Notes: generated from the sequence alone by a model not told the origin. 64,000 nt of DNA from an uncultured Candidatus Saccharibacteria bacterium (GCA_964532425.1 CAZHIA010000006.1:65343-129342), one strand, 5' to 3'; positions 5,039 to 54,349 are shown, numbered from the stretch's first letter. Program-made: numbers and translations.

Positions 5039-5070
5039 CATGCTTCGTTAACAATTTTAGAAATAAAAAA

Positions 5071-5095
5071 ATTCCGCCACAGCGGAATTTTTTTA
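5071..5095. terminator. bidirectional intrinsic terminator
   Basis: ATTCCGC-caca-GCGGAAT flanked by an A-run upstream and a T-run downstream. Serves convergent genes. Confidence 0.7.
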
Positions 5096-5107
5096 TTCAA
5101 TTGTATT

Positions 5108-6160
5108 TTACCATTTGGCATGAATGTGGTAACCGGACTGGCCGAAACAACGGCTATCGCTGTCATTTGATCCGGTCAGGACCAAAAATACGTGGCTACC
5201 ATTTAAATTACATTCGAGAGCGACTTGTGACGCACCATTGCTTCGCAGACTTTGGGCAAGGCTCGTTTGTGACTGGGCATTAGCCGGCTGTGGGGCCAGG
5301 TCAACCGCGCGGCCTTGATAATGAGGATCGCTCGCGCTCGAATGGTGGCCACCGGTCATGGATGTGATCATAAACGAATTACCGGAATTAGCCGCGGCCA
5401 GTAACGCGCCAAGCATGGTGCTGTTTACATCGGTCTTTCCCGCGCCGCAGGTAGTACCAGGACCGTCGAATGTAGCTTTTTGGCCTTGCGCAATGGCATT
5501 CAAAGTCGCGTTCGGGCAGTTGCCGGCACAATCGCAGCTGCTGCTATTGATGCTGATGTGGGAATTCGAAATAATTTGCTGGGCAAGTTGAGCGGAAGTT
5601 CTGGTGGGAGGCGGTTGGACCGCCGTACAGGTGTTGCCGCAGGTCGGCTCGGTGAAAGTGCCGTTGGTGTCGTCCCTTGTGCAATCGTTGTTCACGCAGA
5701 GATATTTTGCTTGCGTTACCGGCGGGGTGGTACTTGGCCCGAGTCCTTCTGGCTGAATGTTCTTAAACTCCACCAGCTGCGGATTTAAAGCCTGCAGGAA
5801 CACGTAGCCGAGCAGTAAGATGACCAGGGAGGCAATGGAAGACGTGATCCAGCCCTTGGCTTTGGTAACTGCTTCGCCGTTGCCCCCGGCTGACATGTAC
5901 ATGTAGCCGGCGATCATGATCATGAACATGCCGACGATGCCGGCAACCACGATGGCAAAGCGGTAGAGCTTATTGATGCAGTTGTAAATATCTTGTCCCC
6001 CGCCATTGCCGTTCTGAGATGGCGTACACAGATAGGTGGAGATGCTGCTCTCGACGCCACTGTAGCTGCTGGCTGAAGTGGCAGCCAGGGCCGGCTGGAC
6101 ATAGCCAAAACACAGCTCAAGGAGCAGGAAACATCCGAAAATTGTGCGGCGGACGTTCAT
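5108..6160 (-). CDS. secreted modular protein: signal peptide + two-TM pilin-like module + PT-rich linker + LAS/M15-type zinc peptidase-like domain
   Basis: N-terminal signal peptide. Two hydrophobic helices split by SAGGNGEAVTKAKGW. C-terminal SDPHYQGRAVDL (SxHxxGxAxD) plus GYHIH (HxH), the LAS zinc-hydrolase signature. Confidence 0.6.
   Translation of the reverse strand: MNVRRTIFGCFLLLELCFGYVQPALAATSASSYSGVESSISTYLCTPSQNGNGGGQDIYNCINKLYRFAIVVAGIVGMFMIMIAGYMYMSAGGNGEAVTKAKGWITSSIASLVILLLGYVFLQALNPQLVEFKNIQPEGLGPSTTPPVTQAKYLCVNNDCTRDDTNGTFTEPTCGNTCTAVQPPPTRTSAQLAQQIISNSHISINSSSCDCAGNCPNATLNAIAQGQKATFDGPGTTCGAGKTDVNSTMLGALLAAANSGNSFMITSMTGGHHSSASDPHYQGRAVDLAPQPANAQSQTSLAQSLRSNGASQVALECNLNGSHVFLVLTGSNDSDSRCFGQSGYHIHAKW
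5763..6129. repeat. 367-bp direct repeat, copy 1 (100 % identical to 7318..7684)
   Basis: Compared by eye. Covers the shared N-terminal coding module of the two paralogs. Confidence 0.85.
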
Positions 6161-6166
6161 TGTAGT

Positions 6167-6625
6167 TTAAGGTAATTGTGTGCTGCCCGCGCAGAAGCTT
6201 AAGCCGAGCTCTTTGCCTGAGTAAGCGCCGTCTACATCGCCAGGCACGCGCACGGAAACATTGAGTTGGCAGGCTTGCTGTTGTGAAATGCCAAGCTGTT
6301 TCAGTAAGTCGTTTTCAGCCAGGTTACGCGCTTGCCCGAGCGGCGGGCTCAGGAGAGTGATCAAGAACGACTGGTCTTTGAAAAAATAAACAAGCTTATA
6401 AGATGCGGATGTATTGATTACGGCAACATCATTGGTTTTTTGAACCGCTTTCTGGGTAAAATCGTTCACTTGCAGCGGGAGGTTGCCCTGGCGGGTCTGC
6501 ACGGCAGTTTTCCCGGCTGGGATAGGCTCCGGCTTGTTCTTGTTCTTGGCCGCGGCGCCGAGCAATGCCAGCACAACGATGCAGCACACTATAAGAATAG
6601 AGCAGATGATGAGAATTTTTTTCAT
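6167..6625 (-). CDS. hypothetical signal-anchored small protein
   Basis: N-terminal hydrophobic segment. Lies between the two paralogous hydrolase genes. Confidence 0.5.
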   Translation of the reverse strand: MKKILIICSILIVCCIVVLALLGAAAKNKNKPEPIPAGKTAVQTRQGNLPLQVNDFTQKAVQKTNDVAVINTSASYKLVYFFKDQSFLITLLSPPLGQARNLAENDLLKQLGISQQQACQLNVSVRVPGDVDGAYSGKELGLSFCAGSTQLP

Positions 6626-6680
6626 ACATGTGCAGGTTGGTGCCCTGCCAGGTTATTGATGAAATAGCTATGGTAACATG

Positions 6681-7727
6681 TTAACGCAAACCGCATTTGT
6701 TGGCGGAATATGCCCACATGTTCCAGTTCGCTCCATTGCCGGAGATCTTGCAGGAATAATTTATGTTGTTCGCTGCATCGGTAATGTAAGAAACGCATGC
6801 GTTGTATTTATTCTGGTCAATGACTTGGCAGTCATACTGTATACAAATGTTGTTTGAAGACTTTCGCAAGCACGTACCTTGCATGCCGGTTCCGTTTACT
6901 TGAATAAAAGACCGCGGGTTGGTGCATGGTCCGCCGATATTGCTGCCATTGGCAATGATATTGACCTGGAATAAGCCCATACTAAAGACACTACCGTCTT
7001 TGCAGACATCGGTCTGGCTTTTTTTGGTCGGATCGCCGCCGCTCTCTATGCCAGCAATCATGGAAGCCGCGGTGGCATTCTGCCCAAAACAGGTGGATTG
7101 TAAATTTGCTACGGAGCCGACTCCATTGTTTAAAACACTGCACTGCCCATTGCCCACCGCCCCGCCTGGGGTGGTTCCACCGGGGGCTGTCCCGCCCGGA
7201 GTCGTGCCTCCCGGAGTAGTTCCTCCAGGGGTGGTCCCGCCAGGGGTTGTACCCCCTGGGGTGGTTCCTCCTGGCTGCGAAACGGACGAGCTGGAGAATC
7301 CTTCAGGCTGCAGGGATTTAAACTCCACCAGCTGCGGATTTAAAGCCTGCAGGAACACGTAGCCGAGCAGTAAGATGACCAGGGAGGCAATGGAAGACGT
7401 GATCCAGCCCTTGGCTTTGGTAACTGCTTCGCCGTTGCCCCCGGCTGACATGTACATGTAGCCGGCGATCATGATCATGAACATGCCGACGATGCCGGCA
7501 ACCACGATGGCAAAGCGGTAGAGCTTATTGATGCAGTTGTAAATATCTTGTCCCCCGCCATTGCCGTTCTGAGATGGCGTACACAGATAGGTGGAGATGC
7601 TGCTCTCGACGCCACTGTAGCTGCTGGCTGAAGTGGCAGCCAGGGCCGGCTGGACATAGCCAAAACACAGCTCAAGGAGCAGGAGGAGGGAAAGAATGGA
7701 TTGGAAAATTTTGTTTTTGATACCCAT
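6681..7727 (-). CDS. secreted modular protein: same pilin-like N-module + (GGTTP)n linker + lytic transglycosylase (SLT)-like domain
   Basis: N-terminal 120 aa identical to 5108..6160. Seven GGTTP repeats. AGIESGGDP (Glu-Ser catalytic motif) and MGLFQVN (GLMQ-like), the SLT/lysozyme-like signatures. Confidence 0.6.
   Translation of the reverse strand: MGIKNKIFQSILSLLLLLELCFGYVQPALAATSASSYSGVESSISTYLCTPSQNGNGGGQDIYNCINKLYRFAIVVAGIVGMFMIMIAGYMYMSAGGNGEAVTKAKGWITSSIASLVILLLGYVFLQALNPQLVEFKSLQPEGFSSSSVSQPGGTTPGGTTPGGTTPGGTTPGGTTPGGTAPGGTTPGGAVGNGQCSVLNNGVGSVANLQSTCFGQNATAASMIAGIESGGDPTKKSQTDVCKDGSVFSMGLFQVNIIANGSNIGGPCTNPRSFIQVNGTGMQGTCLRKSSNNICIQYDCQVIDQNKYNACVSYITDAANNINYSCKISGNGANWNMWAYSANKCGLR
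7318..7684. repeat. 367-bp direct repeat, copy 2
   Basis: Identical to 5763..6129. Confidence 0.85.
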
Positions 7728-7731
7728 AAAG

Positions 7732-9021
7732 TTATTGGGAACCTAAAAAGCTCATCGGGTTATAGGTATATCCGTATGGGACTTTATAAGGCCCGTAGAT
7801 TTTCGTGTATGCGCCGGTGTTGACCCCAAATCCTTCCGCATCATAGACGCCGAAGTGAATATGATAGCCGCGTTCCGGCCCGTATAACTTTTTGGTCGTA
7901 TTGCCTGTATTGCCTTCATAGCCAATGAGGTCGCCCTGTTTGACCTCCTGTCCGGCGCTGACAATGAACCGGCGCATATGCGCATACAAGGTGACAATCT
8001 TGGTCCCGTTGATGTCGTGTTTGACGGCAACCCAGTTGCCGTATTGGGTATCCGAATGATCCGTATCGTATACAATGCCGTCTGCTGCCGCGTAAATTGG
8101 CGTAGCGGCCGGGGCTGCCACGTCGACGCCATTGTGGGAATTATAGCCAAGCGCTGTAAATCCGGTGTTGCCGTAACCTTGCGTCAAAACGCCGTCCATA
8201 GGCCACGCGAGCATTCCCTTGCTGGCCTTAATGCTGCGGTTGCCGAGTTTGGCGCGGATCTTTGAGTCCAAATCATTAACTTCTTTCTGCAGGTCAGCTT
8301 CTTCCTTTTGGCTGCTGGCGAGCAGTTTCTGGTAGTTCTTTTCGAGCCCCCGGGTCTGGTTCAAAAGTTGCTGCTTCTGGTTGCGCTGCTGTTGCAAGTC
8401 GTCCTGGGTCATTTGAAGCTGTTTTTGCAGTTCAGTCAGCTTGTCGCGCTGGACTTCGAGATTATGTTCTTCCTGTTCAAGCTTTGCTTTCAAGTCTTTG
8501 ATTTTTTGGACCAGTTGATAGACCTTGTCTTGGACATTGTTCGTATACTGGATTTGGTCCAGGAAATCGGACAAGCTGTCGCTGCCAATGGTCGTCTTTA
8601 ACGCATACTGGTCGTCGTATTCGTTGAGCTGGACAATAAGCTGGGCCAGGATCTGACGGTTGTCTGCGATCTCTTTGGTCTTTTGGTCGATGAGCTTGTT
8701 GGTTTCCTGGATCTGTAAATTGGTGTCGTCGATCTGCGTCTGTTTGGCTTGAATCTGCAGCTCAGTGGATGCGATTTGGGTATCGTAAATTAGCACTTCA
8801 TTCTTAAGGGTTGAAGCTTTGCTTTGCGTATCCGCGATCTGCCGCTGGTAGGATTTGATCTGCTTGTTCAGATCCTCAATCTTTTTTTGCTTATCCTGCC
8901 TCTGTAAATTCAAAACATCCGTCTCGTTATCAGCCAAAATGCGCGCTGTGGGAAGCCAAAGCGCAAGAATCATAGCCGCTGCAACGGCTGTTTTTATTTT
9001 TGTATCAAACCTGGATTTCAT
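7732..9021 (-). CDS. M23 family peptidase with long N-terminal coiled-coil (EnvC-like architecture)
   Basis: HNGVDVAA (HxxxD) and GYHIHFGVYD (HxH) zinc motifs. About 250 aa of heptad-rich Q/K/E-rich sequence. Signal/anchor at the N-terminus. Confidence 0.8.
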   Translation of the reverse strand: MKSRFDTKIKTAVAAAMILALWLPTARILADNETDVLNLQRQDKQKKIEDLNKQIKSYQRQIADTQSKASTLKNEVLIYDTQIASTELQIQAKQTQIDDTNLQIQETNKLIDQKTKEIADNRQILAQLIVQLNEYDDQYALKTTIGSDSLSDFLDQIQYTNNVQDKVYQLVQKIKDLKAKLEQEEHNLEVQRDKLTELQKQLQMTQDDLQQQRNQKQQLLNQTRGLEKNYQKLLASSQKEEADLQKEVNDLDSKIRAKLGNRSIKASKGMLAWPMDGVLTQGYGNTGFTALGYNSHNGVDVAAPAATPIYAAADGIVYDTDHSDTQYGNWVAVKHDINGTKIVTLYAHMRRFIVSAGQEVKQGDLIGYEGNTGNTTKKLYGPERGYHIHFGVYDAEGFGVNTGAYTKIYGPYKVPYGYTYNPMSFLGSQ

Positions 9022-9126
9022 TGCTGCTATTATAGCATATTTTATGGTTTATTGACAAATATGGAAAAATATGTTAATATTTGGTGTTTAGGGTGCAATT
9101 TACAGAAAGTGAGAATTGGAGGGGTC

Positions 9127-22510: not shown

Positions 22511-24184
22511 TTATGCCTGTTTGGCAAAGTCAAAGGAACTGGCTTTGAGGTTGCTGTTGAGCGGTAAAGTGAAGATAAAATGCGAGCCTTTGCCGATTCC
22601 GCCGCTTTCCACCCATATCTTGCCCTGATGCTGGTTGATGATAACTTTTGCTACATAAAGCCCGAGTCCCAGTCCGGCGCTTTGTTGTATGGACTCTTTG
22701 CCGCGGGTATATTTCTCAAAAATCGTGCTAAGGTCCTCGGTTGGGATGCCTTTGCCCGAATCTTCAACTTCGAAGCGGACCTCTTCGGTATTGTAGGTCA
22801 GGCGAATCTGGATGCTGCCGCTCTTGGTATACTTGATGGCGTTATCGACAAGATTGTTAATGACCTGCCGCAGCTTCTCCCGGTCTGCAGTCACGAGCGG
22901 GATATGGTCTGATTGGGCTTTTAAGGTCATCTTTAAGTGCTTTTCTTCCGCCAGAGGGAGTAGCTGCTCGTAGGTGATGTGTGTCAGTTCGAAGATATCA
23001 ACTTTTTCGAAGAGAAATTCCATCTTGCCGCGTTCGATGCGGGAGACATTCAAGATGTCCTCAATCAGCGAAATGAGAAGGTTGTTGGCGCGGTCGGCCT
23101 TGGAAAGTGCCTCGGTAACGTCCTTAGGGAGCTTGCCGAAGTCTCCGGCAATGACCCCGCTCAAATACCATTTGACCGTGGCTGGCGGCGTGCGCAGCTG
23201 GTGGCTGGCGATGGAAATAAATTCAGCTCGCGCTTTGTCGAGGGCTTTAAGCTGCTGGTTGGCGTCAGCCAGTTCCGTGGTCAGTTTTTCCAGCTCTTCG
23301 CGCTGCTGGACCTCCTGGATGACTGAGCGAATCAGGATTATCCCAAGGCTGAGAAGCAGCAGGAACAGGAACGAACGGAAAATGAGGATGGTCAGCGAAT
23401 TGGAGATAATCACTTCCACGAACACGGCACTGGTCAGCACGAAGACCGCGATCTCTGTGGACAGGATTTTGGTCTGCAGGAGTTTGTGGCGAATAATGGC
23501 ATAGCTCATACAGATGATGAACGGGAAGAAAAATAGTCCGCCAAGGGAAATGAAGCTGGAATTGTTCGAGATGGTCGGCAGTACGAAGTTGAAGTTAATG
23601 ACCAGGCTGAACGTGATCAGCGTGCCGATCAGGATAATAATCAATGGTTTTTTTGCCTTATCATGGGTGGTGGCAATTTTTTTTGCCAGGAGGAAGATGC
23701 CGGAAAGAACCAATCCGGAGGCAACCATCCCAAAGACCCCAATAGCCGGCCCATTCTGGATGCTGATCACTCTGCCATACTTATCGGTTTCTGCGACTCT
23801 TTCAAAGACCCACGGAGTCAGGGTAGCCAGGGCGCCAAACGCTGCTATGGAATTGACTGCATACTTGAACCAGTCGGGAAAATGCTTCTCCTCGTCAGGG
23901 AACACGTAAAATAAGCTGAATAACAGGTATGCTTGAACGATAGCAAGAAAGATTTCGAGGCGAAAGAACCACAAGGCGATTGTCGGATCGGAAATTTGGT
24001 AGGCAGAATAGTTAACGGCTCCCCAAACGCTCGTAATAAGGGAGAAAGCTAAAAAGAGTTTGCTGCTCAGGTTATTCTTATTATTCAAGTAGACGGTAAA
24101 CGCCAAAATGACGGTAGCGGCCATAGCCACACCGAGGGAAAGCAGGTCGACGTTTTGCAGAAGGGCAAGGCGGATGATGCTCAT
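22511..24184 (-). CDS. sensor histidine kinase with multi-TM N-terminal sensor region
   Basis: About 8 TM helices. H-box SHQLRTP. HATPase motifs DSGKGIP and GLGLGLY. Its start overlaps the stop of the upstream nitroreductase-like gene. Confidence 0.85.
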   Translation of the reverse strand: MSIIRLALLQNVDLLSLGVAMAATVILAFTVYLNNKNNLSSKLFLAFSLITSVWGAVNYSAYQISDPTIALWFFRLEIFLAIVQAYLLFSLFYVFPDEEKHFPDWFKYAVNSIAAFGALATLTPWVFERVAETDKYGRVISIQNGPAIGVFGMVASGLVLSGIFLLAKKIATTHDKAKKPLIIILIGTLITFSLVINFNFVLPTISNNSSFISLGGLFFFPFIICMSYAIIRHKLLQTKILSTEIAVFVLTSAVFVEVIISNSLTILIFRSFLFLLLLSLGIILIRSVIQEVQQREELEKLTTELADANQQLKALDKARAEFISIASHQLRTPPATVKWYLSGVIAGDFGKLPKDVTEALSKADRANNLLISLIEDILNVSRIERGKMEFLFEKVDIFELTHITYEQLLPLAEEKHLKMTLKAQSDHIPLVTADREKLRQVINNLVDNAIKYTKSGSIQIRLTYNTEEVRFEVEDSGKGIPTEDLSTIFEKYTRGKESIQQSAGLGLGLYVAKVIINQHQGKIWVESGGIGKGSHFIFTLPLNSNLKASSFDFAKQA

Positions 24185-25263
24185 GGGGTGTTTTTGTATT
24201 CTACCTGAATAGGTAGTTTCGATGAATAATCCGTAGCCGGTTGAGCCTGGCCGATGCGCAGGATCATAGCCAGAGTTTGTCCCTGGGTCGAAAGAATTTC
24301 TTCAATTTCCCGATAAGATTCTTTGACCAGTGCAATATGGGATGGGTGCAGGGAGCCTGTCTGGTTAGCGTTGATGCGGTGCATAAGGAACAGTACTCCC
24401 GTAACTGGATGGGCGGACAAGCCGAGAGCTGTAGCTTCCAGCCAGATCCGCTGCGTTACCCGCCCAGCTTCCAGGAATCCTGCCGCATCGCTTTTGTTAT
24501 TCGGAACGCTTACTGCAACCAGTGCGCCCGAAGCCGCGTAAAGTTTGGCATTCTCATTGGCAATAATGCGGGAGAATCCCAAGCGATTGAGGAATTCTGC
24601 CCGGGCGCTGACGGAGTATTGTTTGAAGATGAAACGCGCAATAGCGTTCATTTCCAAAGTAGTGACATAGAGTCCAGTTCTGACTTGGCGTTCCTGCTGC
24701 TGGGTCCAGACTACATGATGGAAAAATATTTGTCTGAGGGTTGGTGTTTCCAGGACCGTGCGTTCATTGGCGCTGAGAGCCTTACCGAGGCGTTTGAGCT
24801 GTTCCTTGTCCTCACAAATAGTAATTTTGCACAGGCTATCGCCTCCCCTACTGCCGCAAGCGAGTATGCGGTGTTTAGCCGCATCCTGCAGTTTTTCGGC
24901 AAGGTAATGCCGGCGGTTGGTTTGCCGCTTTGCTATATAAGATGCGAGCGGATCCTGCGGAGTATTCGATTCAATCAAAGTAATTTCGGCGGTCAGATCG
25001 GGATTGCGATCATTCGGTAACAGCTTTACCTCGGCAGACAGCCCGTGCATGCTCGCGGCGATCATAATGTTCTCGATGAGCGCTCCATGTGCCAGGTAAG
25101 ACCCCTTCTGTTCATAGTTGTAGAATGGAATGTCGCGCTCGGGAAGGTTAAAGGTCCGTATGACCGATCCACTGACTTCAAAACGCCACGGCTGCGAATT
25201 ATCCCCGGACGGGGCATGCGCGGCAAGTTTTAAAATTTCACTAATGGTCTGTTCGGTGATCAT
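24181..25263 (-). CDS. nitroreductase-fold (SagB/McbC-type) FMN-dependent dehydrogenase-like protein
   Basis: N-terminal SGDNSQPWRF motif of the nitroreductase superfamily. About 360 aa, consistent with a double nitroreductase-like fold. Confidence 0.6.
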   Translation of the reverse strand: MITEQTISEILKLAAHAPSGDNSQPWRFEVSGSVIRTFNLPERDIPFYNYEQKGSYLAHGALIENIMIAASMHGLSAEVKLLPNDRNPDLTAEITLIESNTPQDPLASYIAKRQTNRRHYLAEKLQDAAKHRILACGSRGGDSLCKITICEDKEQLKRLGKALSANERTVLETPTLRQIFFHHVVWTQQQERQVRTGLYVTTLEMNAIARFIFKQYSVSARAEFLNRLGFSRIIANENAKLYAASGALVAVSVPNNKSDAAGFLEAGRVTQRIWLEATALGLSAHPVTGVLFLMHRINANQTGSLHPSHIALVKESYREIEEILSTQGQTLAMILRIGQAQPATDYSSKLPIQVEYKNTP

Positions 25264-26405
25264 AAACCGATCGTGCTTAAGAATGCTCGGGTGTGCTCTT
25301 GGCGTTCCTGTTCTTTTTCCGCAGTTGCATATCCGGTCTCAAAAATAGCATCCAGGTTGACCTGGTAACGGCCGGAAGCAGGATCCGTGTCTTTCGTCAC
25401 AATTTTGCGTACCAGGTACGGGATAACGCTGCCACACAGATTTGCTGCCGTGCCGAGCTGTGGCCAGGAGTACAGGGTGCGACCGACTTCGAGTACCGAA
25501 TCCTGCATCCGCGAGGTGGCTAATTCGGCTCCGGCGATGCGCGCAGCGGCTTTGGGGAGGTCCTGCGGAGAGAGTTGTTTGAAATGTTCCGCGGTCATAT
25601 CCCCCACCAGCCCGTTCAAAATCGGTGCATCAGGATTTCGGTCATAGCGCTCAACATCTACGAAAATATTATCGCCGTTATCAGTGCCCATGAGGACCGG
25701 AATGTGTCTGGCCTTTGCCGCCTCGCGGACTTTCAGTTTGAAGTAGGGCTGGTCCATTTCTTCGATCAGGATGTCCGCGCCGTCCAAAAATTCTCCCAGA
25801 TTGCCGTCGTTGAGCCCTTCGGGGTATATTTTAATTTCCGCATACGGGTTGATCTCGTATATCTGCCGGGCTACCAGCAGAGTTTTATTCAGCCCGACGC
25901 TGGTTATGCCGATTCTCAGCCGGTTGAGGTTGGATCCTGAGACTTCGTCGGGGTCGGCCAGACGCAAGTGCTTCGGACCGCCGTTCATGGCCAAGACCGC
26001 AGCCGCATGGCTTCCTACGCTTAAGCCGGCAATAGCCGCGGTGGCCTGGTAGTAAGTTTCTTGTTCATCTTTGGTGATGAGGTTGCGGTTTCTTCCCGTG
26101 CGCATTTCCAGAAATTCATGTTCCGGCAGTACGTGCACGAGTTTGGAGAGCCACGGGTAATAAAACCAGTTGCCGCAATCCTTGAGTGGTCGTCCTTGGC
26201 AGTACAGGGTAACAAAACCGGCGAGTTCCGCCTGATGGTCAGGCTGGAATCGGAATTGTGGGTTACGTAGCAGGAAGAGGTCTTCCAACAACGTTTCGTA
26301 CCGGTCGATAACCTCGACCTCGGATGATTCCTGCAGCTGCTTGAATAAGCGGTTATTTTCCGATGTGACCAAAAGGGGTTGGTGTTCCTGAGAGGGAGTC
26401 TTCAT
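25260..26405 (-). CDS. ThiF/MoeB/E1-like adenylyltransferase-family protein with N-terminal extension
   Basis: Rossmann motif GLSVGSHAA plus a downstream acidic residue pattern typical of the E1-like fold. 4-nt overlaps with both neighbours. Confidence 0.6.
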   Translation of the reverse strand: MKTPSQEHQPLLVTSENNRLFKQLQESSEVEVIDRYETLLEDLFLLRNPQFRFQPDHQAELAGFVTLYCQGRPLKDCGNWFYYPWLSKLVHVLPEHEFLEMRTGRNRNLITKDEQETYYQATAAIAGLSVGSHAAAVLAMNGGPKHLRLADPDEVSGSNLNRLRIGITSVGLNKTLLVARQIYEINPYAEIKIYPEGLNDGNLGEFLDGADILIEEMDQPYFKLKVREAAKARHIPVLMGTDNGDNIFVDVERYDRNPDAPILNGLVGDMTAEHFKQLSPQDLPKAAARIAGAELATSRMQDSVLEVGRTLYSWPQLGTAANLCGSVIPYLVRKIVTKDTDPASGRYQVNLDAIFETGYATAEKEQERQEHTRAFLSTIGL

Positions 26406-27925
26406 CGTTTTGCAAGTGAATTTTTAATAGCCCATCGCTGCTTTGTCCCTGGCGCAAAATAAGTCTTGTCTTCGTATGGCCAGAAGACGACGAGTGGATC
26501 GGTCTTGCCTCCGTATTCCTCCCGCGTTTTGCGGTATTCGGAATTTTCTTTGGTCAGGGTTCGAATAATGGCTTCCCGGCAGGCTCGGTTCAAACTGTCG
26601 GTGGACTGTATGCCGCGCTTGAGTTCAATATTGACGACAAAACGCTGGTCGGCATTTTTATTTTCACGAACCTGCATGCTGAACTTGCCTGTGATGGCTT
26701 TTTGCAAAGTTTTTTCAGTCAGGGCCTTGCGCACGGTTTGCGGATAGATTTGAAAAGCAAAAAAACTGACCGAAAAGTCGCTTCGTTCATGCACGTAGAC
26801 AAATGGCAGTTGCCACAGGGTGTCGCCCAGTTGCTTGTTGCCGGCTTCCATTATGAGATTCCTATCATGCAGCTGCCAGAGCGACTGCATCTGCTGAAAC
26901 GGGATAACCCCTCCCCTGTCCTTGAGGTCATAACGGACCAGAGGCAGTCCGGCACGGCTGGTGCAGGCAAGCTGGTTATTTACACTTTCGAAGAAAAATT
27001 GTTCCGGCAAATACTGGGTAAGGGTAGGCAGTTTGAATTTTTCGTTAAATAGGCTTTGGTACAACTTTTGATTCTTCACGGCTTCGCGGCGGATATAGAT
27101 GGAAACTGGCGTTTCATATGACATAGTTCCTAAATCTACAGTGCCATAGTGGTTTAAAGTGCTACGATATGGGTCTTTGCATCCGCAGGTCTTGAGAACG
27201 AAATCACGAAATTGTTCGCTGAAGCCTTCAGCAGAGAAGATGAAGCCAAGAGAAGTATCGGACCACTTGATGCCTTCGGCCAGCCCGTCTTCCAGAACAT
27301 CTTTCAAAAACGGAGCATACGCGCCGATGATGACCTGGTCGAATTTGTCCTTAAGGTTTTTGAAGGAGTTCAGAATCTCGCGCTTGTTAATCCCTGGCGT
27401 GATGATGCTCAGCGGATATTGCCCGCGCTGGGCAACTAATTGCACCGCTTCGTATGTGAAGACTCCCCCGATCCAAACTCCCATAGGGAAGGCATTTATA
27501 TACAGCGTGCTTTTGGAATGAATGGAAAAATTGGTCCGCAGGTATAACTCAGCCGTGAGGGCATATTGCAGGTCCTGTTCTCTGGTCCTTGGGAAGTAAA
27601 ACGGATTGCCGGTGGAACCGGAGGTGGCAGAAATGGTCCAAGCCTGGCGCTTGAACGCGCCGTCCCAGCAAAGGGCTTCTAAAGGATAACGCCGCAGATA
27701 ATCATCCTTGCTGGTCAGGGGTAGCTGCTGAAAATCCGAAAAAGTCTGGATCTTTTCCGGCTTGACCTTATTGATTTTTAGAAAATCCTTATAGGCAGGC
27801 ACCCGCGCGGCCATTTCCTGGAACAACTCTAATGCTTCCTGTTGCCCGCGTTGTTCCCAGTAGCGTGCAGGACGGGTTTTGAGTTGTTTTTCCAATGATA
27901 GGACAACGGCAGGTTTTATAGCCAT
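26402..27925 (-). CDS. adenylate-forming enzyme (PaaK/F390-synthetase-like ANL superfamily)
   Basis: Motif TSATSGSTGNPFYF corresponds to the SSGTTGKP P-loop of phenylacetate-CoA ligase-like enzymes. 507 aa. Confidence 0.55.
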   Translation of the reverse strand: MAIKPAVVLSLEKQLKTRPARYWEQRGQQEALELFQEMAARVPAYKDFLKINKVKPEKIQTFSDFQQLPLTSKDDYLRRYPLEALCWDGAFKRQAWTISATSGSTGNPFYFPRTREQDLQYALTAELYLRTNFSIHSKSTLYINAFPMGVWIGGVFTYEAVQLVAQRGQYPLSIITPGINKREILNSFKNLKDKFDQVIIGAYAPFLKDVLEDGLAEGIKWSDTSLGFIFSAEGFSEQFRDFVLKTCGCKDPYRSTLNHYGTVDLGTMSYETPVSIYIRREAVKNQKLYQSLFNEKFKLPTLTQYLPEQFFFESVNNQLACTSRAGLPLVRYDLKDRGGVIPFQQMQSLWQLHDRNLIMEAGNKQLGDTLWQLPFVYVHERSDFSVSFFAFQIYPQTVRKALTEKTLQKAITGKFSMQVRENKNADQRFVVNIELKRGIQSTDSLNRACREAIIRTLTKENSEYRKTREEYGGKTDPLVVFWPYEDKTYFAPGTKQRWAIKNSLAKR

Positions 27926-43625: not shown

Positions 43626-45305
43626 TCACTTGGCGACTTCCACCGGGAGTTCAATATAAAACACCGTCCCTTTATTTTCCCGCGACTTGAATGAAATTTT
43701 TCCTTTGCAGTAATCAAGAAATGATTTGACAAGGTAGAGCCCGAGACCCGAGCCTTCAGTATCCAGTTTGGCCGCGTTGTCGGCACGGAACAGTTTCGTA
43801 AAGACCTTGTTTTGCTGGTGTCTGGGAATACCATATCCCGTGTCTGCAACGGTTATGCGCAAAACAGGTTTCTTCCGCGCCTGTTTTGCTATGGAAATTT
43901 TCGTATTGATTGTTCCGCGGGACGGGGTATACTTTACCGCATTCGTGACGAGATTTTGCAAAACCAGGCGGATAACCTTTCGGTCCGACAGGATCGGTTT
44001 GAGATTTTTTGAAAAATCCATCTGGACACGCAGTTTCTTTTCCTTGATGATGGGGCTAATCTCTTTTACGATGTCCTCCAACAGCTCTTTGATACTTATG
44101 ACGGACAACTTGATAGTAAATGTTCCCAACTCTATGCGGGAGACATTTAAAAAGTCATAGACGAGTTCCACCATTTTTTGGTTGGCTTTATACACCGCTT
44201 GCAAATAGCGGCGTTGGTCCTTGGTTAGCCGCCCGATCTCCCCGCTGAGCAGGGCTTCGGCATACCAGTTGATCGCTGAGAGCGGGGTGCGCAGCTGATG
44301 GGAGACCAGGGAGATGAGTTCAGATTTGGTCTTGTCCATTTCCCGTTCCTTGGTTACGTCCCGGAAGACTTGGATGAATCCAATGATTTGGCCGTGGTAC
44401 ATGACCGGAGAAGCAGTGAGGACGACCGGGATCCGTGAGCCGTTTTTTTTCTGGTAAAAGACGTTCTTGGACTTGGTTTGCAGGAAGTGGTGTAGGGCCC
44501 GGTAAATGGGACGCTTGGCGTGTTCTATGGGTTGATGCTGCTCGTTCAGCATGGGTTCCGTGTCGAGCAGGAATTTGCCAATCAGCTCATCCTGGCGGCA
44601 TCCGAAGATCCGTTCGGCTTCCCGGTTGACGAGAATTATTTTCCCTTCCTTATCGGTCAGGAGAATGCCTTCTCCGATTGAATTGAGCAAAATTTCGTCC
44701 TTCACTTTATCTTGGCTGAGCAGGCTGCGATTTTGTTCGAGTTCAGTAGTGCGCTCCTTGAATTTGACCTTCAGTTGTTGATTTGCTTCTTGCAGGTTCC
44801 GGTTCAGGCGATTAATGGTGATTGCTTGTGCTGCGCCGTTTCCGATGAAAGTGCACAAGTCCTGTTCCTCGCTGGAAAAGTCATGATGGGAATTATAACA
44901 AATGACCAGCGTGCCATACGTCTTGTCGCGGTATGCAACGGGTATGACCGCTACGCTTTGCATATAGGCACGGGCATCGCCGCGTAAAAAGTCCGCTTGG
45001 GCGGCATCAGTGACCAGGAGCGGGGTTTTATTCTCAAAAACCCTGGCCATCACCCCGTGCTTGCGGGGAGCGGTCGGGGTATACGGGGTATTCTCGGTCT
45101 TATAGAGCCGCTTAAATTCTTCGTCTTTGGGCTCCTTGAACCAAGAGAATCCATAATTTGCACCCAAGACAGCCACGGCAGTTTTGACGAATTTGCTGGC
45201 AATAACCTGCTCGTCAGCCTCATTCACGCATTCGAGAATAACCTCATTGAGCAGAGTCAGTTTGTTGGAAATATGATTCATAAAAATTTGGGTCGCCGGT
45301 GGCAT
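43626..45305 (-). CDS. cytoplasmic sensor histidine kinase (GAF-PAS-HisKA-HATPase)
   Basis: H-box SHQLRTPL. DTGYGIP and GSGLGLYLV. The ORF opens at 45401, but the start was moved to avoid overlapping the upstream gene. Confidence 0.8.
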   Translation of the reverse strand: MPPATQIFMNHISNKLTLLNEVILECVNEADEQVIASKFVKTAVAVLGANYGFSWFKEPKDEEFKRLYKTENTPYTPTAPRKHGVMARVFENKTPLLVTDAAQADFLRGDARAYMQSVAVIPVAYRDKTYGTLVICYNSHHDFSSEEQDLCTFIGNGAAQAITINRLNRNLQEANQQLKVKFKERTTELEQNRSLLSQDKVKDEILLNSIGEGILLTDKEGKIILVNREAERIFGCRQDELIGKFLLDTEPMLNEQHQPIEHAKRPIYRALHHFLQTKSKNVFYQKKNGSRIPVVLTASPVMYHGQIIGFIQVFRDVTKEREMDKTKSELISLVSHQLRTPLSAINWYAEALLSGEIGRLTKDQRRYLQAVYKANQKMVELVYDFLNVSRIELGTFTIKLSVISIKELLEDIVKEISPIIKEKKLRVQMDFSKNLKPILSDRKVIRLVLQNLVTNAVKYTPSRGTINTKISIAKQARKKPVLRITVADTGYGIPRHQQNKVFTKLFRADNAAKLDTEGSGLGLYLVKSFLDYCKGKISFKSRENKGTVFYIELPVEVAK

Positions 45306-45328
45306 CCCGGCGACCGTGTTCTGGTACC

Positions 45329-46102
45329 TTACTGTTTTTCGAACGGTATGATGACATACCGGTCGATGTCGAACATGGTCTCCTTGCGCAGCTCGTCGCA
45401 TGCGCGCATGGTATGCCCGAACGTTTCTGGGTAAAATTGGAAGTTGCGAAACGTTGAATCTGGGCCAGGTTTCCTGCTGGGGTTGAGGTCTTTAGTCGAT
45501 TCCGCAAGCAGGAAATGTCCTCCGCGTTTAAGGAGCGGGACGACTTGTTGCCGGAGGCAAAATGCAAGCTCTTCGTCGTTTCTGATGTGCGGGCCGAGGC
45601 GTTCCCAGGTAATAAGGTCAAAGCTTTCTTCTTCAAACCTGCTGCATAGTTCGTGCGCGCCTCCGACTCCGAAGTTGCTGACATAGTCGCCGAGTCCTTT
45701 ACTCATGAGGTAGGAGTGTAGGAAATCGACGATTGCGGGGCAGATGTCCTGTCCGAAACACTCGCCGCCGGTGCTGAGGGCTAGGCCCAGATATTCGACA
45801 ACACGGCGGATACCGTTCGCTACTATCAGAATCCTGACCTTGTCTTTACCGGCAAGGCAGGCAGCCGCTACTTTGAATATTTCGTCTGAAAGTTCCTGCT
45901 CCTGCTGTTCGCAGTATTGCCGGATCTCCGGACGATGGATATCCTCTGCCAACCAGTGTGCAGGACCCCCCATAAACCAGATCAGGCGGTTAAAGCGGTA
46001 CTGCCAACGTTCGACGACTTCTTCCTGGTCGATTTTGACATACGGGGTAACCGTGAGCTCGTTTGCGGGGGCCTGGATGAACTGCAACCAGTGCTTGCCC
46101 AT
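45329..46102 (-). CDS. hypothetical protein (possible class I methyltransferase fold)
   Basis: Weak GxGxG-like and acidic-loop patterns. Low certainty. Confidence 0.35.
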   Translation of the reverse strand: MGKHWLQFIQAPANELTVTPYVKIDQEEVVERWQYRFNRLIWFMGGPAHWLAEDIHRPEIRQYCEQQEQELSDEIFKVAAACLAGKDKVRILIVANGIRRVVEYLGLALSTGGECFGQDICPAIVDFLHSYLMSKGLGDYVSNFGVGGAHELCSRFEEESFDLITWERLGPHIRNDEELAFCLRQQVVPLLKRGGHFLLAESTKDLNPSRKPGPDSTFRNFQFYPETFGHTMRACDELRKETMFDIDRYVIIPFEKQ

Positions 46103-47216: not shown

Positions 47217-50200
47217 ATGGGTCCACTGGAATCACGCATGCTATCACTCCAGGAGTGGCTGGCTCAGAGGAAAATGCGGGGTATAATTGTTACCCTGATC
47301 GTTTTGGTTGTGCTCGAAATTGTGACGCATCGCACCCGGTTTAATGTCGTCAATCCGGGTTTGTTTTTACTTATTGCTGTTGTCTATGCAGCTTTTATCG
47401 ATGGCATGATGGCCGGGCTGGTAAGTGGCACGCTCGGCTTTTTGTATTCTCTATATTTTTTCTCTCGTGATGGCCGCCTATTCACCTACACACCCGATGA
47501 CCTAACCCGGGTTATTGCCCTGTTCGTCTCCACTTATGCGATTGTGTATATGACCGGCTGGCTCAAACAGCAGAACGATCTGAAGACCCGGCAGCAGGAG
47601 CAGCAGCGCCTTCAGGAGTTGCAGGAAGACAAGATATGTGTTTTTGCTGATGCTTTCCCTAATATTATTTGGACGATGGCCAGCGATGGTACGTACGAAT
47701 ATTTTAATAATACCTGGTATGAATTTTCAGGATTAACGAGGGTGCAGACGTTCGACCATACGATCACCCGATCCCTCATACACCCAGAAGATATACAGCG
47801 AGTGCTGGAGCGCTGGTGCCAGTCTCGGGAGAGTGGTCAATCACTGGAGATTGAATATCGTCTCAAGTCAAAAGCTGGGGAGTTTCGCTGGTTTATGGCC
47901 AGGATCGTTCCGGTCAAGAACGCCCAGGGCGCGGTTATTAAATGGTTCGGTTCCGCGACTGACATTCACAAGCAGCGCAAGGTTGAAGCAGAATTGGAAA
48001 ATTCCAAGCGGCAGCTGGAGGCGGTGTTAGCGAATGTGGCAGACGGCCTCGTGGTGCGTAATTTCCAGGGCCGGATCCTTTTTACCAACGGAGCGGCATT
48101 ACGCATTTTTGGGGTCAGTTCGGTGGAAGAACTGTCCGAATTCCTCTCATCTGATGTTTCGCATGGTCTTAATTTTCGCGACATTGATAACAGGCCGGTA
48201 CATATGCAAAAGCTTTTTATGCCTACGCCTGGCAAGAACGGTACTGGGACTGATCCGCAGATATACAGTCTTGTTGGCAATGCAATTACCGCAAAGCGAT
48301 GGGTCTCCATTTCCGCCACTTCCATTGTGAATTCCCCCGCTGCCCCCGATCTGTACGTGTCTGTTATCCGGGACATTACGAATGAGCGTAAGGCCATCAT
48401 TGAAACGGAACGATTAGTCGCCCAGCAGGAGTTTCTCGCCCGCGCCGGCGAGCTACTCACTTCTTCTTTGGACCATGAAACAACACTCAAAAGCCTCACC
48501 AGGCTCATTGTGCCAAGGCTTGCCGAATGGACAGTCGTGCATTTGGTCCAACCTGACGGAGCAGTGGTTGAGGTGGCGGCGGCCCACGTAGACCAGGAGA
48601 AGGAAAGGAGGCTCGTGAAAACTCTCGGTACTCGGAAAAACGAGCAGGGTGAACTAGCAACGCCGAGTTGGATGCTCAAAGTTGTGCAGACCGGCAAGCC
48701 CGAATTTCACCCTATCGTGAACGAACAAACTATATCGGCTATTACGCTCGGCACCGAGCACACACGGATGATCCGGGAAACTGGAATCCGTTCGATCATG
48801 GTGGTTCCGCTAAAGAATTTAGACCAAGTGATTGGCACAATCTCTTTTGCCTACACCGATACGGACAATCATTTTTCGGAGAGCGACTTACAAATGGCAG
48901 AAGAGCTGGCACGGCGCGCCTCGATAGCCATTCAGAATTCCAAACTGTATCACCAGGCACGGGAGATTGCGTCCCGCGAACATGAGCACGCTGCTCTTAC
49001 CGAGACTTTACTCGGCAATGCCCCGGTCGGTTTTGGGTTTGTCTCTTTGGATTACAAGTTTTTGCAGGTCAACAACGCTCTCGCTGCCATGAACAGCGTC
49101 AGTCCTCGGGATTTGCTTGACCGGCGCTTGAGCGAAGTCCTACCCGACCTGGCTGAAGTAGTCGAGCCTCAGTATGACCACGTAGTAAAACATGGGGAAC
49201 CGGTGGTTGATTATGAGATTAGCGGGTATACGCCGGACAATCCGGAGCGGCTGCGACACTGGTTCTACAATTTTTTTCCAGTGCGCAATACCGACAGTAA
49301 ATTGAGCGGAATCGGCATTATTGTTGCGGAGGTGACTGACCGCAAGGAAGCCGAACGGGAGATTCATTACCGCGCATACCATGATATCCTGACTGGTTTG
49401 CCGAACCGGAAATATTTTGACGAACGCCTGGCATACGTGCTCCATCGGTCCAAGCGCGACCATCACAAATTTGCCGTATTGTTCATCGACATGGACCGAT
49501 TGAAGAACATTAACGATTCGCTCGGGCATGACATCGGCGATACGGTCATTCGCGAACTTGCGGAACGCCTCAAAAAAACGTTGCGTGCTGGGGATGTAGT
49601 GGCGCGCTGGGGAGGCGATGAATTCGTGATCTTGCTGCCCGAGCTTTCGGTTATAGCAGACGCGGTCAAAGTTGCAGAAAAGATCTTGAAAACCGTGGAG
49701 CCGTCCCTCCGGATTGGCGTCCATACGCTGCACATGACGGTGAGTATTGGCATTGCAGTCTTCCCGAATGATGGAGAGGATGTTCAGACGCTGCAGAAAA
49801 ATGCGGATATCGCCTTGTACCGCGCCAAAGAGGCTGGCAAGAACCGCTACGAGCTGTATAACCAGCAAATGAATGTTAAAGCTTCCGAGCGCCTGGCTCT
49901 GGAAAACGATTTGCGGCAGGCTCTCGCCAAGTGCCAGATGGACCTCTACTATCAGCCAATCCAAGATTTAAAAACCGGACGTATCGTATCGGTCGAAACG
50001 CTGCTCCGTTGGCGGCATCCGCGTTTTGGCCTCTTGTCCCCGCTCCGATTTTTACCCATCGCGGAAGAAACCGGTATCATCTCCCAGCTCGGTTCATGGG
50101 TTATTGACCAGGCCGTCTCCCACATGGCTGAGCTGAACCTTACCAGCGGGCCTATGCGATTTTCGATCAATATTTCAGCGCGTCAATTTTCCGAGGGCGG

Positions 50201-50702
50201 GCTGGTTGCCGGCATTATCGACCGCCTGCAGGCGCATCAATGCAGTCCGGAGCTGCTTGATATTGAAATTACCGAGAGTCTGGCTATGGAAAATCTCGAT
50301 CGGACTCGGAATACGCTCGATGAATTGAAACAATACGGAATCTCTATTACGGTCGACGATTTTGGAACCGGCTACTCTTCCTTGAACTACCTGAAGCGTC
50401 TACCAATTGACCGCCTCAAAATAGACAAATCTTTTGTCCGGCATGTCTTGACCGATGAGCAGGATACCAGCATTATCAAAGCCATTACTTCAATGGCAGA
50501 AAGTTTGCATTTGAAGGTTGTTGCGGAAGGGGTGGATACCGAGATGCAGTTGAATCTTTTGCGGTCGCTCGGCTGCCATGCGGTTCAGGGTTATCATATT
50601 AGCCGCCCGCTGTCGCGACATGAACTAGTGGCATTCTTGAATAAGAAGAACCAAGAGATTTCTCCGGTACAGACACAGGTGGAGGAAGGAGCACAATCTT
50701 AA
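47217..50702 (+). CDS. membrane-anchored PAS-GAF-PAS-GGDEF-EAL signalling protein
   Basis: RWGGDEF diguanylate cyclase motif. EAL signature (EITES, DDFGTGYSS). N-terminal TM helices. 1161 aa. Confidence 0.9.
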   Translation: MGPLESRMLSLQEWLAQRKMRGIIVTLIVLVVLEIVTHRTRFNVVNPGLFLLIAVVYAAFIDGMMAGLVSGTLGFLYSLYFFSRDGRLFTYTPDDLTRVIALFVSTYAIVYMTGWLKQQNDLKTRQQEQQRLQELQEDKICVFADAFPNIIWTMASDGTYEYFNNTWYEFSGLTRVQTFDHTITRSLIHPEDIQRVLERWCQSRESGQSLEIEYRLKSKAGEFRWFMARIVPVKNAQGAVIKWFGSATDIHKQRKVEAELENSKRQLEAVLANVADGLVVRNFQGRILFTNGAALRIFGVSSVEELSEFLSSDVSHGLNFRDIDNRPVHMQKLFMPTPGKNGTGTDPQIYSLVGNAITAKRWVSISATSIVNSPAAPDLYVSVIRDITNERKAIIETERLVAQQEFLARAGELLTSSLDHETTLKSLTRLIVPRLAEWTVVHLVQPDGAVVEVAAAHVDQEKERRLVKTLGTRKNEQGELATPSWMLKVVQTGKPEFHPIVNEQTISAITLGTEHTRMIRETGIRSIMVVPLKNLDQVIGTISFAYTDTDNHFSESDLQMAEELARRASIAIQNSKLYHQAREIASREHEHAALTETLLGNAPVGFGFVSLDYKFLQVNNALAAMNSVSPRDLLDRRLSEVLPDLAEVVEPQYDHVVKHGEPVVDYEISGYTPDNPERLRHWFYNFFPVRNTDSKLSGIGIIVAEVTDRKEAEREIHYRAYHDILTGLPNRKYFDERLAYVLHRSKRDHHKFAVLFIDMDRLKNINDSLGHDIGDTVIRELAERLKKTLRAGDVVARWGGDEFVILLPELSVIADAVKVAEKILKTVEPSLRIGVHTLHMTVSIGIAVFPNDGEDVQTLQKNADIALYRAKEAGKNRYELYNQQMNVKASERLALENDLRQALAKCQMDLYYQPIQDLKTGRIVSVETLLRWRHPRFGLLSPLRFLPIAEETGIISQLGSWVIDQAVSHMAELNLTSGPMRFSINISARQFSEGGLVAGIIDRLQAHQCSPELLDIEITESLAMENLDRTRNTLDELKQYGISITVDDFGTGYSSLNYLKRLPIDRLKIDKSFVRHVLTDEQDTSIIKAITSMAESLHLKVVAEGVDTEMQLNLLRSLGCHAVQGYHISRPLSRHELVAFLNKKNQEISPVQTQVEEGAQS

Positions 50703-53966: not shown

Positions 53967-54079
53967 GTGAATACTACTCTTATTTCGATTGGTCGAAGGT
54001 GGAGCAGATCAATTCTCCGTAAGTGGACAGGGACGCGGCAAAGCCGGTGTGCAGCGGTTCGGGCAAATGGTTGAGCCGA

Positions 54080-54349
54080 TTAATGGTATTTTTCCCTTGG
54101 TTCTTCCGGACGAGGTTTGTTTTCCCGGTCATGGGCAGTAAGCCGATCCACCATATTATTGCTGTTCATGGCACCCGAAAAGATCAGCTCTTTAAACATA
54201 TTGAAAATTTGGAATCGCCTATCCGTATCGCGGCCTGCCCGATGGTAAAAGCGCTCCAGGCTGGAAACAATGGTTTCTTCCACCGGGAACCCCTTGAGAG
54301 TGAAGGATATCGGCTCGTTAGGTACTGGTAATTCAGCTTTAAGTTCCAT
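54080..54349 (-). CDS. hypothetical protein
   Basis: ORF only. A competing + strand ORF at 54023..54331 is judged less protein-like. Confidence 0.35.
   Translation of the reverse strand: MELKAELPVPNEPISFTLKGFPVEETIVSSLERFYHRAGRDTDRRFQIFNMFKELIFSGAMNSNNMVDRLTAHDRENKPRPEEPREKYH

Follow-up and report, generated by a model that had tools for sequence, protein, structure and literature searches.

An apparent four-gene operon of predicted peptidoglycan hydrolases

The window analysed here, a 64,000-nucleotide stretch from an uncultured Candidatus Saccharibacteria bacterium (GCA_964532425.1, CAZHIA010000006.1:65343-129342), carries two genes, A and B, whose products share an almost identical pilin-like N-terminal module and end in different domains predicted to cut peptidoglycan. 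Both are found on the minus strand, where the open reading frame (ORF) listing places them at the coordinates given in an earlier note on this DNA: A at 5108..6160 (350 residues, a pilin hairpin with a LAS zinc-peptidase C-domain) and B at 6681..7727 (348 residues, a pilin hairpin with an SLT_3-type C-domain). In the direction of transcription the gene order is a coiled-coil M23 (LytM-type) endopeptidase of 429 residues (7732..9021, minus strand), B, a small anchored protein of 152 residues termed D1 (6167..6625, minus strand) and A, with gaps of 4, 55 and 6 nt between the four genes. The best promoter-like site of the region, a sigma-70-like TTGTCA-18-TATAAT with an extended -10 TG (9029..9058, minus strand; 11 of 12 matches, a consensus match only), is located 8 nt 5' of the M23 start codon, and a putative bidirectional terminator, a 16-pair palindromic hairpin with A- and T-run flanks (5062..5097, no strand; also a consensus match only), begins 11 nt past the stop codon of A. 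Because the promoter-like site precedes the M23 gene and the terminator-like hairpin follows A, the stretch from 9058 to 5062 on the minus strand appears to be a single four-gene operon of extracytoplasmic peptidoglycan hydrolases on the chromosome of an ultrasmall member of the Patescibacteria (Candidate Phyla Radiation, CPR), which resembles Doudnabacteria as judged from its closest relatives in synteny. Housekeeping genes border the operon, gltX on one side and Fe-S or SDR genes on the other.

The M23 gene product consists of an N-terminal signal or anchor, a coiled coil of about 230 residues and the M23 domain, which matches PF01551 (86 bits, E 1.8e-24), has intact HxxxD (HNGVD) and HxH (HIH) motifs, and matches the MepM, ShyC and DipM-like models of NCBIfam as well as EnvC- and NlpD-type domains. 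The small anchored protein between A and B and the adjoining coiled-coil M23 peptidase, both of which the earlier note had pointed out, are confirmed by these ORFs and by the PF01551 match.

The shared N-terminal module is a VirB2-like pilin hairpin

The N-terminal modules (N-modules) of A and B are identical at 122 of 129 residues (BLASTP), and beyond this region the two proteins are unrelated. The coding DNA contains an exact tract of 367 nt, situated inside 389 nt of 98% identity, which is present as direct repeats in A (5763..6129, minus strand) and in B (7318..7684, minus strand); a third copy is not found in the window. The tract extends from within the signal-peptide h-region to about four codons past the second hydrophobic helix, where it ends abruptly. 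Both N-termini are hydrophobic signals with a cleavage site between PALA and AT (hydropathy), the signal peptide comprising residues 1-26 of A and 1-30 of B, and the hairpins that follow occupy residues ~32-133 and ~36-137, respectively. In A the two hydrophobic helices (residues 64-91 and 103-130) are separated by a Gly/Lys loop of 12-14 residues, SAGGNGEAVTKAKG. In the AlphaFold2 models the N-module is a helical hairpin with a predicted local distance difference test score (pLDDT) of 76-83; the linker after it is disordered, and the C-domain reaches a pLDDT of ~85-95. Paralogues with one N-module and different C-modules, and a signal peptide ahead of two close helices with a short loop, are thus present as originally described.

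Both hairpins match PF18895 T4SS_pilin (A, 32.2 bits; B, 32.5 bits; gathering threshold 26.6), the model for the VirB2-like pilins of Patescibacteria (PMC12102498). The match of B to PF04956 TrbC/VirB2 is below threshold (14.1 bits, E 0.057, against 27.9 bits) and A does not match this model at E ≤ 1. The pilin relationship proposed from topology therefore holds through PF18895, but not through the TrbC/VirB2 model. A weak match is also seen to NCBIfam NF045849, a pilin-like family of Mycoplasma integrative and conjugative elements (E ~0.01), and Foldseek gives a pilin match with a TM-score of 0.71, a helical hairpin being a non-discriminating fold. A sequence search of the PDB with the N-module profile found no pilin; the designed Pizza repeat proteins that it returned were rejected as spurious, as their scores are sums of many 3-bit matches. 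In N-modules of this class, helix 1 is preceded by an additional Cys-pair segment and helix 2 is followed by a conserved junction, INPxLxxF...IQPPSV.

Between hairpin and C-domain, B has the (GGTTP)7 linker noted earlier (residues ~152-188, one unit being GGTAP), encoded by a 15-nt tandem repeat (7165..7274, minus strand; Tandem Repeats Finder: period 15, 7.3 copies, 73% nucleotide matches). The linker of A is PT-rich, again as noted, and contains in addition a four-cysteine mini-module that had gone unmentioned. A and B are in sum modular VirB2-like pilins, in which a Sec signal peptide and a PF18895 hairpin are joined through a flexible low-complexity linker to a wall-hydrolase domain.

The mini-module of A is a unit of 28 residues, KYLCVNNDCTRDDTNGTFTEPTCGNTCT (residues 152-179, window 5621-5707), that is not present in the homologues of A. 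A unit of the same type occurs as five repeats in the stalk of a 592-residue membrane-anchored metallophosphoesterase (P0014), which is suggestive of a portable module that serves as a spacer or knot.

The C-terminal domain of A resembles Hedgehog-type zinc peptidases

In the C-domain of A (residues ~186-350), H273, S274, H280, D287, E316, H345 and H347 are invariant in 12 sequences (38-51% identity, full-length), and these residues include the zinc motifs DPHYQGRAVD (H280-x6-D287) and HIH (H345-x-H347) and the Glu, E316. A PDB profile search with this domain returned Hedgehog N-domains only (E 0.009-0.03); GGHHS..HYQGRAVD of A is aligned with the zinc ligands of Sonic hedgehog (Shh), GHHS..HYEGRAVD, and E316 with the Shh catalytic Glu. 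The domain is modelled at a pLDDT of ~90 (AlphaFold2), and the top 30 Foldseek matches of this model are all Hedgehog N-domains (probability 0.89-0.99, E ~0.02, TM-score 0.33-0.47), although at modest significance. Since motifs, PDB profile matches and modelled fold all agree, A is assigned as a predicted LAS (Hedgehog/DD-peptidase-fold) zinc peptidase outside the recognisable Pfam M15 families: the C-domain has no Pfam match, the M15/VanY models PF02557, PF08291, PF13539 and PF05951 are silent at E ≤ 1, and the HH_signal model does not match either. Of the M15/LAS assignment made in the earlier note, the LAS part is supported by motif, profile and fold, whereas a Pfam M15 or VanY match is lacking and the closest solved structures are Hedgehog N-domains; similarly, HxH is present as described, but SxHxxGxAxD is approximated only, its first position being D. 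Compared with the LAS zinc peptidases (MEROPS M15, Hedgehog N-domain), A has the same H-x6-D, H-x-H, conserved Glu and fold match, and is distinguished by its fusion to a pilin and, relative to Shh, by ~30 residues inserted between the catalytic Glu and HxH. It is a lead to an unannotated bacterial family of Hedgehog-like LAS peptidases.

The C-terminal domain of B is probably lysozyme-like

The C-domain of B (residues ~192-348) scores 20.5-23.8 bits against PF18896 SLT_3, under the 27-bit cut-off. Among 15 aligned relatives that are 31-49% identical to B, however, 12 match PF18896 (best E 1.7e-9), and many B homologues have a precomputed PF18895+PF18896 assignment. E228-S229 and G251-LFQ-N256 are invariant or nearly so in the family, and in the model of B a helix (215-229) ends at E228-S229 and is followed by short strands and then by GLFQVN leading into a helix. 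A relationship to the SLT family proper is not apparent: PF01464 SLT has no match to B (Pfam), and alignment of the SLT_3-type family with genuine pilin-fused SLT domains (hhalign) gave a probability of 4%, with only the S-x-GL(F/M)Q motif aligned, so that homology to PF01464 is not demonstrated. A Foldseek search of the PDB with the well-modelled C-domain gave no match at E ≤ 10. As the score of B itself is sub-threshold, the Foldseek search was empty and the hhalign comparison with SLT failed, a lysozyme-like domain of the PF18896 SLT_3 family is considered probable rather than proven. The SLT-type signature read previously survives in its ES and GLFQ motifs and in the PF18896 match of the family, but not as a PF01464 or hhalign match. 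The RNase A family, which appeared in the PDB profile search (E ~0.1, through its cysteine pattern), was taken as a chance match and set aside.

The enzyme changes within a fixed chromosomal slot

A profile of the N-module, searched against 1.84 billion proteins, matched 68,800 cluster representatives at E ≤ 1e-3 and 113 at E ≤ 1e-30. Among the best matches, ~105 proteins have one N-terminal module and a C-terminal extension of 150-520 residues. A Pfam scan of 109 relatives found PF18895 T4SS_pilin in 106 and, as C-modules, SLT_3 (13), SLT (10), Peptidase_M15_4 (4), Peptidase_C39_2 (3) and GDSL (2), together with single cases of Amidase_2, CHAP and Glucosaminidase; checks of representatives bore these assignments out and added two more LAS-like types for which there is no Pfam model. 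On this Pfam repertoire, all recognised C-modules act on the cell envelope. Short pilins that lack a fused domain were not found for this N-module class, the few short matches ending within the linker and appearing truncated.

A scan of species-representative genomes yielded 79 loci of two classes. The first (L001-L043), in metagenome-assembled genomes (MAGs) labelled Doudnabacteria, Saccharibacteria or Patescibacteria, contains one or two long fusions, and the second (L044-L079) has 5-13 short pilins per locus in classical arrays. About 40 of the first-class loci have the gene order of the window (WecG/NUDIX, GltX, coiled-coil M23, fusion or fusions), with identities to the window orthologues of 55-70% for M23 and 63-71% for GltX. 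The slot after the M23 gene is occupied by one or two fusions, whose C-domains cluster into eight types; in contrast to A, other fusions of the slot match Peptidase_M15_4. Since synteny is kept while the C-domain type differs, the slot is fixed in a conserved chromosomal neighbourhood and it is the enzyme that changes. The A/B locus is therefore one instance of a widespread polymorphic cassette system in which the C-modules are exchanged among at least eight hydrolase types.

In one genome the same slot (L002, 4384-5952) encodes a fusion of 522 residues with an SLT-like and a Hedgehog-like LAS domain behind one pilin module, which is a two-enzyme version of the two-gene arrangement of the window.

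The long members of the short-pilin arrays are differently built, as they mostly have N-terminal extensions of 250-320 residues with no Pfam match ahead of a C-terminal pilin module. No hydrolase domain was found in them (Pfam), which sets the hydrolase fusions apart as a distinct class. A pilin module is combined with PG_binding_1 in two long array members (L066, 3911-5014; L077, 5637-6902). Several single proteins contain tandem PF18895-like modules, with 17 modules in P0117 (1775 residues), 11 in P0144 (1147), 10 in P0172 (966) and 8 in P0045 (820), and a giant ORF with a pilin module (L048, 5406-15894; at least 3496 residues) reaches the end of its locus. These multi-module proteins are either real poly-pilins or read-through from gene calling with a wrong genetic code.

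SLT_3 and glucosaminidase-like cassettes travel with small anchored partner genes

D1 has an N-terminal transmembrane anchor and an ectodomain of ~110 residues with two conserved Cys; profile searches of Pfam, NCBIfam and the PDB found no relatives. Within the syntenic slot D1 is encoded downstream of all four SLT_3-type fusions and of none of the 49 others, and a different small anchored family, D0, is found downstream of all eight glucosaminidase-like fusions, with neither partner found beside the remaining 41 cassettes (peptidase and SLT types). Each of these two cassette types, SLT_3 and glucosaminidase-like, thus comes with a small anchored partner of its own.

An independent scan of metagenomes, seeded with the SLT_3 domain alone, gave 80 loci (L081-L160). 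D1 follows the SLT_3 gene in ~57 of 67 (~85%) non-identical genes with enough downstream sequence, a count made up of 48 cases called directly and 9 in which the D1 start was over-extended by the ORF caller. This recurrent gene order marks D1 as a conserved partner of SLT_3-type modules. On the simplest reading D1 would be a cognate membrane-anchored inhibitor or immunity protein, and it is a candidate for a new inhibitor or partner family of the PF18896 lysozyme-like enzymes.

Concerted evolution of the N-modules

The exact repeat of the window is not an isolated case, as nine of ten other genomes with tandem fusions have an exact identity of 148-479 nt between the paralogues that is limited to the N-module. 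In six genomes with the same cassette pair (LAS type 0 and glucosaminidase-like type 2), the N-modules are 88-100% identical within each genome, whereas N-modules on orthologous C-domains are on average 62-63% identical between these genomes. This difference argues that the cassette pairs are old and that their N-modules have been repeatedly homogenised, and it points to concerted evolution of the N-modules within each genome. The members of short-pilin arrays, in comparison, are reported to be 25% identical on average and 54% at most (PMC12102498).

Recombination between the direct repeats of the window would delete the SLT_3 cassette along with D1. The reading adopted here, with no better than an even balance of belief and doubt, is that the 367-nt direct repeats offer a simple route for the loss, gain and exchange of cassettes by homologous recombination. 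Domain-limited concerted evolution of this kind could explain how the cassettes are exchanged.

Relation to type IV secretion systems

The VirB2-like pilins of Patescibacteria are encoded in arrays of 2-11 genes, often near virB4 (PMC12102498; PMC10633639), and VirB4 is found in 2,417 of 3,035 assemblies of this group (PMC12102498). In Southlakia the pilin arrays are essential genes of the type IV secretion system (T4SS) cluster (PMC10633639). Lysozyme and peptidase homologues downstream of virB4 are also reported to be essential in Southlakia, and a classical VirB1 is reported as mostly missing near virB4 (PMC12102498). In the one genetically tractable member of the Patescibacteria, the T4SS and its unusual VirB2-like pilins are essential for epibiotic growth (PMC10633639). 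The T4SS ATPases that the earlier note had suggested looking for (VirB4, VirD4) are, however, not encoded in the 64-kb window, and neither are VirB6 or a short pilin.

The metagenome loci present a different picture. VirB4-like ATPase genes (P-loop_TraG, AAA_10, DUF87) account for 10 of 73 large neighbouring ORFs, which makes them the most frequent Pfam families, and in 10 of the 39 loci of at least 5 kb such a gene lies on the same strand no more than 1.6 kb upstream of the SLT_3 gene. Further pilin-module genes are found beside the SLT_3-D1 pair in 20 of these 39 loci; in five the pair is embedded in short-pilin arrays, and in ~10 a second long fusion follows D1, as in the window. With VirB4-like genes directly upstream in 10 loci, the B-type module belongs to T4SS clusters elsewhere, a context that matches the essential lysozyme and peptidase homologues downstream of virB4 in Southlakia (PMC12102498), and in the clade of the window it appears to have moved behind the M23 gene. 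The likeness to VirB1-like T4SS hydrolases that had been proposed for this locus consequently finds some support in these loci of other Patescibacteria, but not in the window itself.

Within T4SS clusters the SLT_3-D1 pair is a conserved gene pair whose D1 member has no annotation (L082, L097, L104 and L151, for example). Among the large ORFs beside three short-pilin arrays in Doudnabacteria- or Saccharibacteria-labelled genomes (L071, L072, L075), no VirB4 and one marginal TrbL/VirB6 were found (Pfam). Genes for Wzy_C proteins (O-antigen ligase / O-oligosaccharyltransferase) make up 10 of the 73 large ORFs near pilin-SLT_3 modules, a frequency equal to that of the VirB4-like genes. Enzymes of the Wzy_C family glycosylate type IV pilins in other bacteria, and in view of these neighbours the Ser/Thr/Pro-rich linkers of the fusions could be glycosylated.

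Comparison with known systems

The fusions have the hidden Markov model family and the signal-peptide-plus-hairpin topology of the Patescibacteria VirB2-like pilin arrays (PF18895; PMC10633639; PMC12102498), in which related fusions are embedded. Array pilins are, however, ~115-170 residues long and have no catalytic domain, whereas the fusions carry a hydrolase of 150-250 residues; array members are divergent (PMC12102498), while the N-modules of paralogous fusions are 88-100% identical. The fusions also differ in their Cys-pair segment and INPxLxxF...IQPPSV junction, and the A/B locus differs in its position outside a T4SS cluster, as far as the 64-kb window extends.

Also similar are the Gram-positive VirB1-like hydrolases of the TraG (pIP501), PrgK (pCF10), CD419 and TcpG types, which are likewise modular enzymes anchored in the membrane and hydrolyse the wall through SLT-, CHAP- or M23-type domains; in addition, SLT_3 relatives of B adjoin VirB4-like ATPase genes. 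These hydrolases have a single N-terminal transmembrane anchor instead of a pilin hairpin with a cleavable signal, and the fusions of the window are further set apart by one catalytic domain per protein, by a dedicated small partner gene and, for A and B, by the lack of linkage to T4SS genes within the 64 kb.

A third comparison is with polymorphic toxins and effector-immunity systems (CDI, Rhs, LXG; Tse1/Tsi1, Tse3/Tsi3; X-Tfe/X-Tfi of Xanthomonas), which resemble the fusions in a constant N-module with an interchangeable C-terminal enzyme at a fixed locus, in the use of peptidoglycan glycosidases and peptidases as C-modules and, for two of the cassette types, in a small downstream gene that goes with the C-module (12 of 12 cases, four SLT_3 and eight glucosaminidase-like). 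Unlike these systems, the fusions are predicted to be exported by Sec and the pilin hairpin, not by a T5/T6/T7 (type V, VI or VII secretion) carrier or an XVIPCD signal; their peptidase cassettes have no partner genes, and no orphan cassettes were seen. Finally, Streptococcus sanguinis has modular type IV pilins, PilB with a vWA module and PilC with a lectin module. As in the fusions, a globular module is placed on the C-terminal end of a pilin, where the filament displays it, but PilB and PilC belong to a different pilin superfamily, that of the type IV pilins, which have a class III signal peptide and no relationship to VirB2-type hairpins, and their modules are adhesins and not wall hydrolases.

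Function of the fusions

The reading favoured here, although the case for it is no stronger than evenly balanced, is that A/B-type fusions are the wall-cutting arm of a Patescibacterial T4SS-type pilus apparatus and act where the pilus crosses a wall. After cleavage of the signal peptide, the hairpin would be inserted N-out/C-out as in VirB2 pilins, leaving the catalytic domain on a tether of 40-60 residues in the wall compartment. There, the enzymes of the operon could jointly dismantle peptidoglycan: the LAS peptidase would act on stem peptides or cross-links, the SLT_3 enzyme on the glycan strands and the M23 enzyme on the cross-bridges, while D1 would restrain the glycosidase at the membrane of the producer. 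An anchor that is a pilin module would place the enzymes at the site of T4SS or pilus assembly, or make them part of the pilus itself. The turnover of enzyme types suggests the host wall as a target.

Several observations weigh against this proposal. No T4SS or short pilin gene is located within the 64 kb, and a short pilin with this N-module class that could build the shaft of a filament was not found in the searches described above. The locus is situated amid housekeeping genes behind a conserved M23 gene, which fits an ordinary autolysin operon equally well. Partner genes accompany the glycosidase cassettes only, the peptidase cassettes having none, and gene conversion between tandem repeats can be neutral. 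The lysozyme-like assignment of B combines a sub-threshold match with family transitivity and is confirmed by neither Foldseek nor hhalign, and the enzymatic action and localisation of the family members are predictions. VirB1-like hydrolases of Gram-positive T4SSs are modular and variable too, so that turnover of C-modules is by itself no proof of an attack on the host.

A bolder version of the proposal, which is speculative and somewhat unlikely, would make the fusions polymorphic enzyme-armed pilins of the conjugative type. Subunits with different hydrolases would use their identical N-modules to assemble together into the T4SS pilus of an epibiotic bacterium, or onto it, and digest host peptidoglycan at the contact site, the anchored D-type partners would protect the producer from its own glycosidases, and the N-module DNA would serve as a recombination landing pad for an exchange of enzyme plus immunity among strains that tracks host wall chemistry. 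If true, this would represent a new principle of effector delivery, in which the VirB2-type pilin itself carries the effector as a fusion, and a new class of polymorphic effector system.

Two alternatives take the fusions to act on the wall of the producer. They may be housekeeping autolysins, in which case the hairpin would be merely a two-helix membrane anchor, the M23, SLT_3 and LAS enzymes would remodel the cell's own wall in growth or division in the manner of EnvC-, PcsB- or CwlO-type proteins, and D1 would be a regulator. The housekeeping neighbours of the operon (gltX, and Fe-S or SDR genes), the lack of T4SS genes across the 64 kb, the syntenic M23 partner (55-70% identical in ~40 genomes), the likeness of a coiled coil plus M23 to division-associated hydrolases (DipM-, EnvC- and NlpD-type matches) and the missing free shaft pilin are all consistent with this explanation. 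Such enzymes are, however, normally orthologous and conserved, whereas here at least eight unrelated hydrolase folds occupy one slot among related genomes; moreover, the N-module is a true PF18895 member with related fusions in pilin arrays and beside VirB4-like genes, and the strict co-variation of partner gene and cassette type is more typical of effector-immunity modules, so that the autolysin explanation is rated as unlikely. It is also conceivable, though likewise unlikely, that the fusions are pure analogues of VirB1, the pilin module recruiting hydrolases that open the producer's own wall for the T4SS or pilus and that are never displayed and never touch a host. Such a role would agree with the 10 metagenome loci in which an SLT_3-D1 pair immediately follows a VirB4-like gene, with the essential peptidase and lysozyme homologues downstream of virB4 in Southlakia and the reported scarcity of classical VirB1 near virB4 (PMC12102498), and with the membrane-anchored multidomain hydrolases TraG (pIP501) and PrgK (pCF10) of Gram-positive systems. 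On the other hand, two to three hydrolases plus M23 per operon, a dedicated partner and rapid cassette turnover exceed what local opening of the wall needs, and the genes of this clade are uncoupled from any T4SS cluster.

That a chimeric or collapsed assembly has joined one N-terminus to two unrelated C-terminal genes is hardly credible. Exact repeats of 367 nt are indeed hard for short-read assemblers, and an independent assembly of the locus (L080, Logan SRR11567520, 7976 bp) breaks 72 nt into B, at the start of the repeat, the point at which a repeat would interrupt assembly from short reads; this shows that tandem fusions of this kind will systematically be broken up or under-reported in such assemblies. 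Nevertheless, the same tandem arrangement with exact N-module identity recurs in the nine of ten other MAGs, which come from different projects, and an independent ENA contig contains a full-length B orthologue, 91% identical and with the same N-module. In addition, both ORFs are intact with distinct start regions of their own, and full-length orthologues of A exist at 38-48% identity. An artefact was rejected as the cause of the shared N-module.

The components of this system, namely VirB2-like pilins, T4SS-associated hydrolases and LAS, SLT and M23 enzymes, are already known, and the PF18895+PF18896 combination is implicit in Pfam and database annotations. In the literature searched, no description was found of pilin-hydrolase fusions, of the breadth of hydrolases on one pilin module, of the fixed polymorphic slot, of domain-limited concerted evolution or of the conserved SLT_3-D1 pair, and the family is apparently both widespread and undescribed. 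The covalent fusion of pilin modules to a changing set of wall-cutters connects the pilus apparatus, in a concrete and testable way, with the breaching of a wall, be it the host's or the producer's own.

Other features of the window

An 887-residue protein with Major Vault Protein shoulder and Vault_3 repeat domains is encoded at 57420-60083 (plus strand). The region from 54000 to 60000, in which the G+C content swings from 0.42 to 0.59 and which is accompanied by flanking tRNA genes (55216-55288 and 56310-56380), may be an integrated element with a bacterial vault-like protein. At 24181-27925 (minus strand), three overlapping or adjacent genes for a nitroreductase-family protein, a ThiF-family protein and a weakly GH3_C-like protein of 507 residues adjoin a 7TM histidine kinase and could form a small modification or biosynthetic cluster. 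A PAS-GAF-GGDEF-EAL protein of 1161 residues (47217-50702, plus strand) and a GAF-PAS histidine kinase (43626-45401, minus strand) make up a signalling set that is unusually rich for a Patescibacteria genome.

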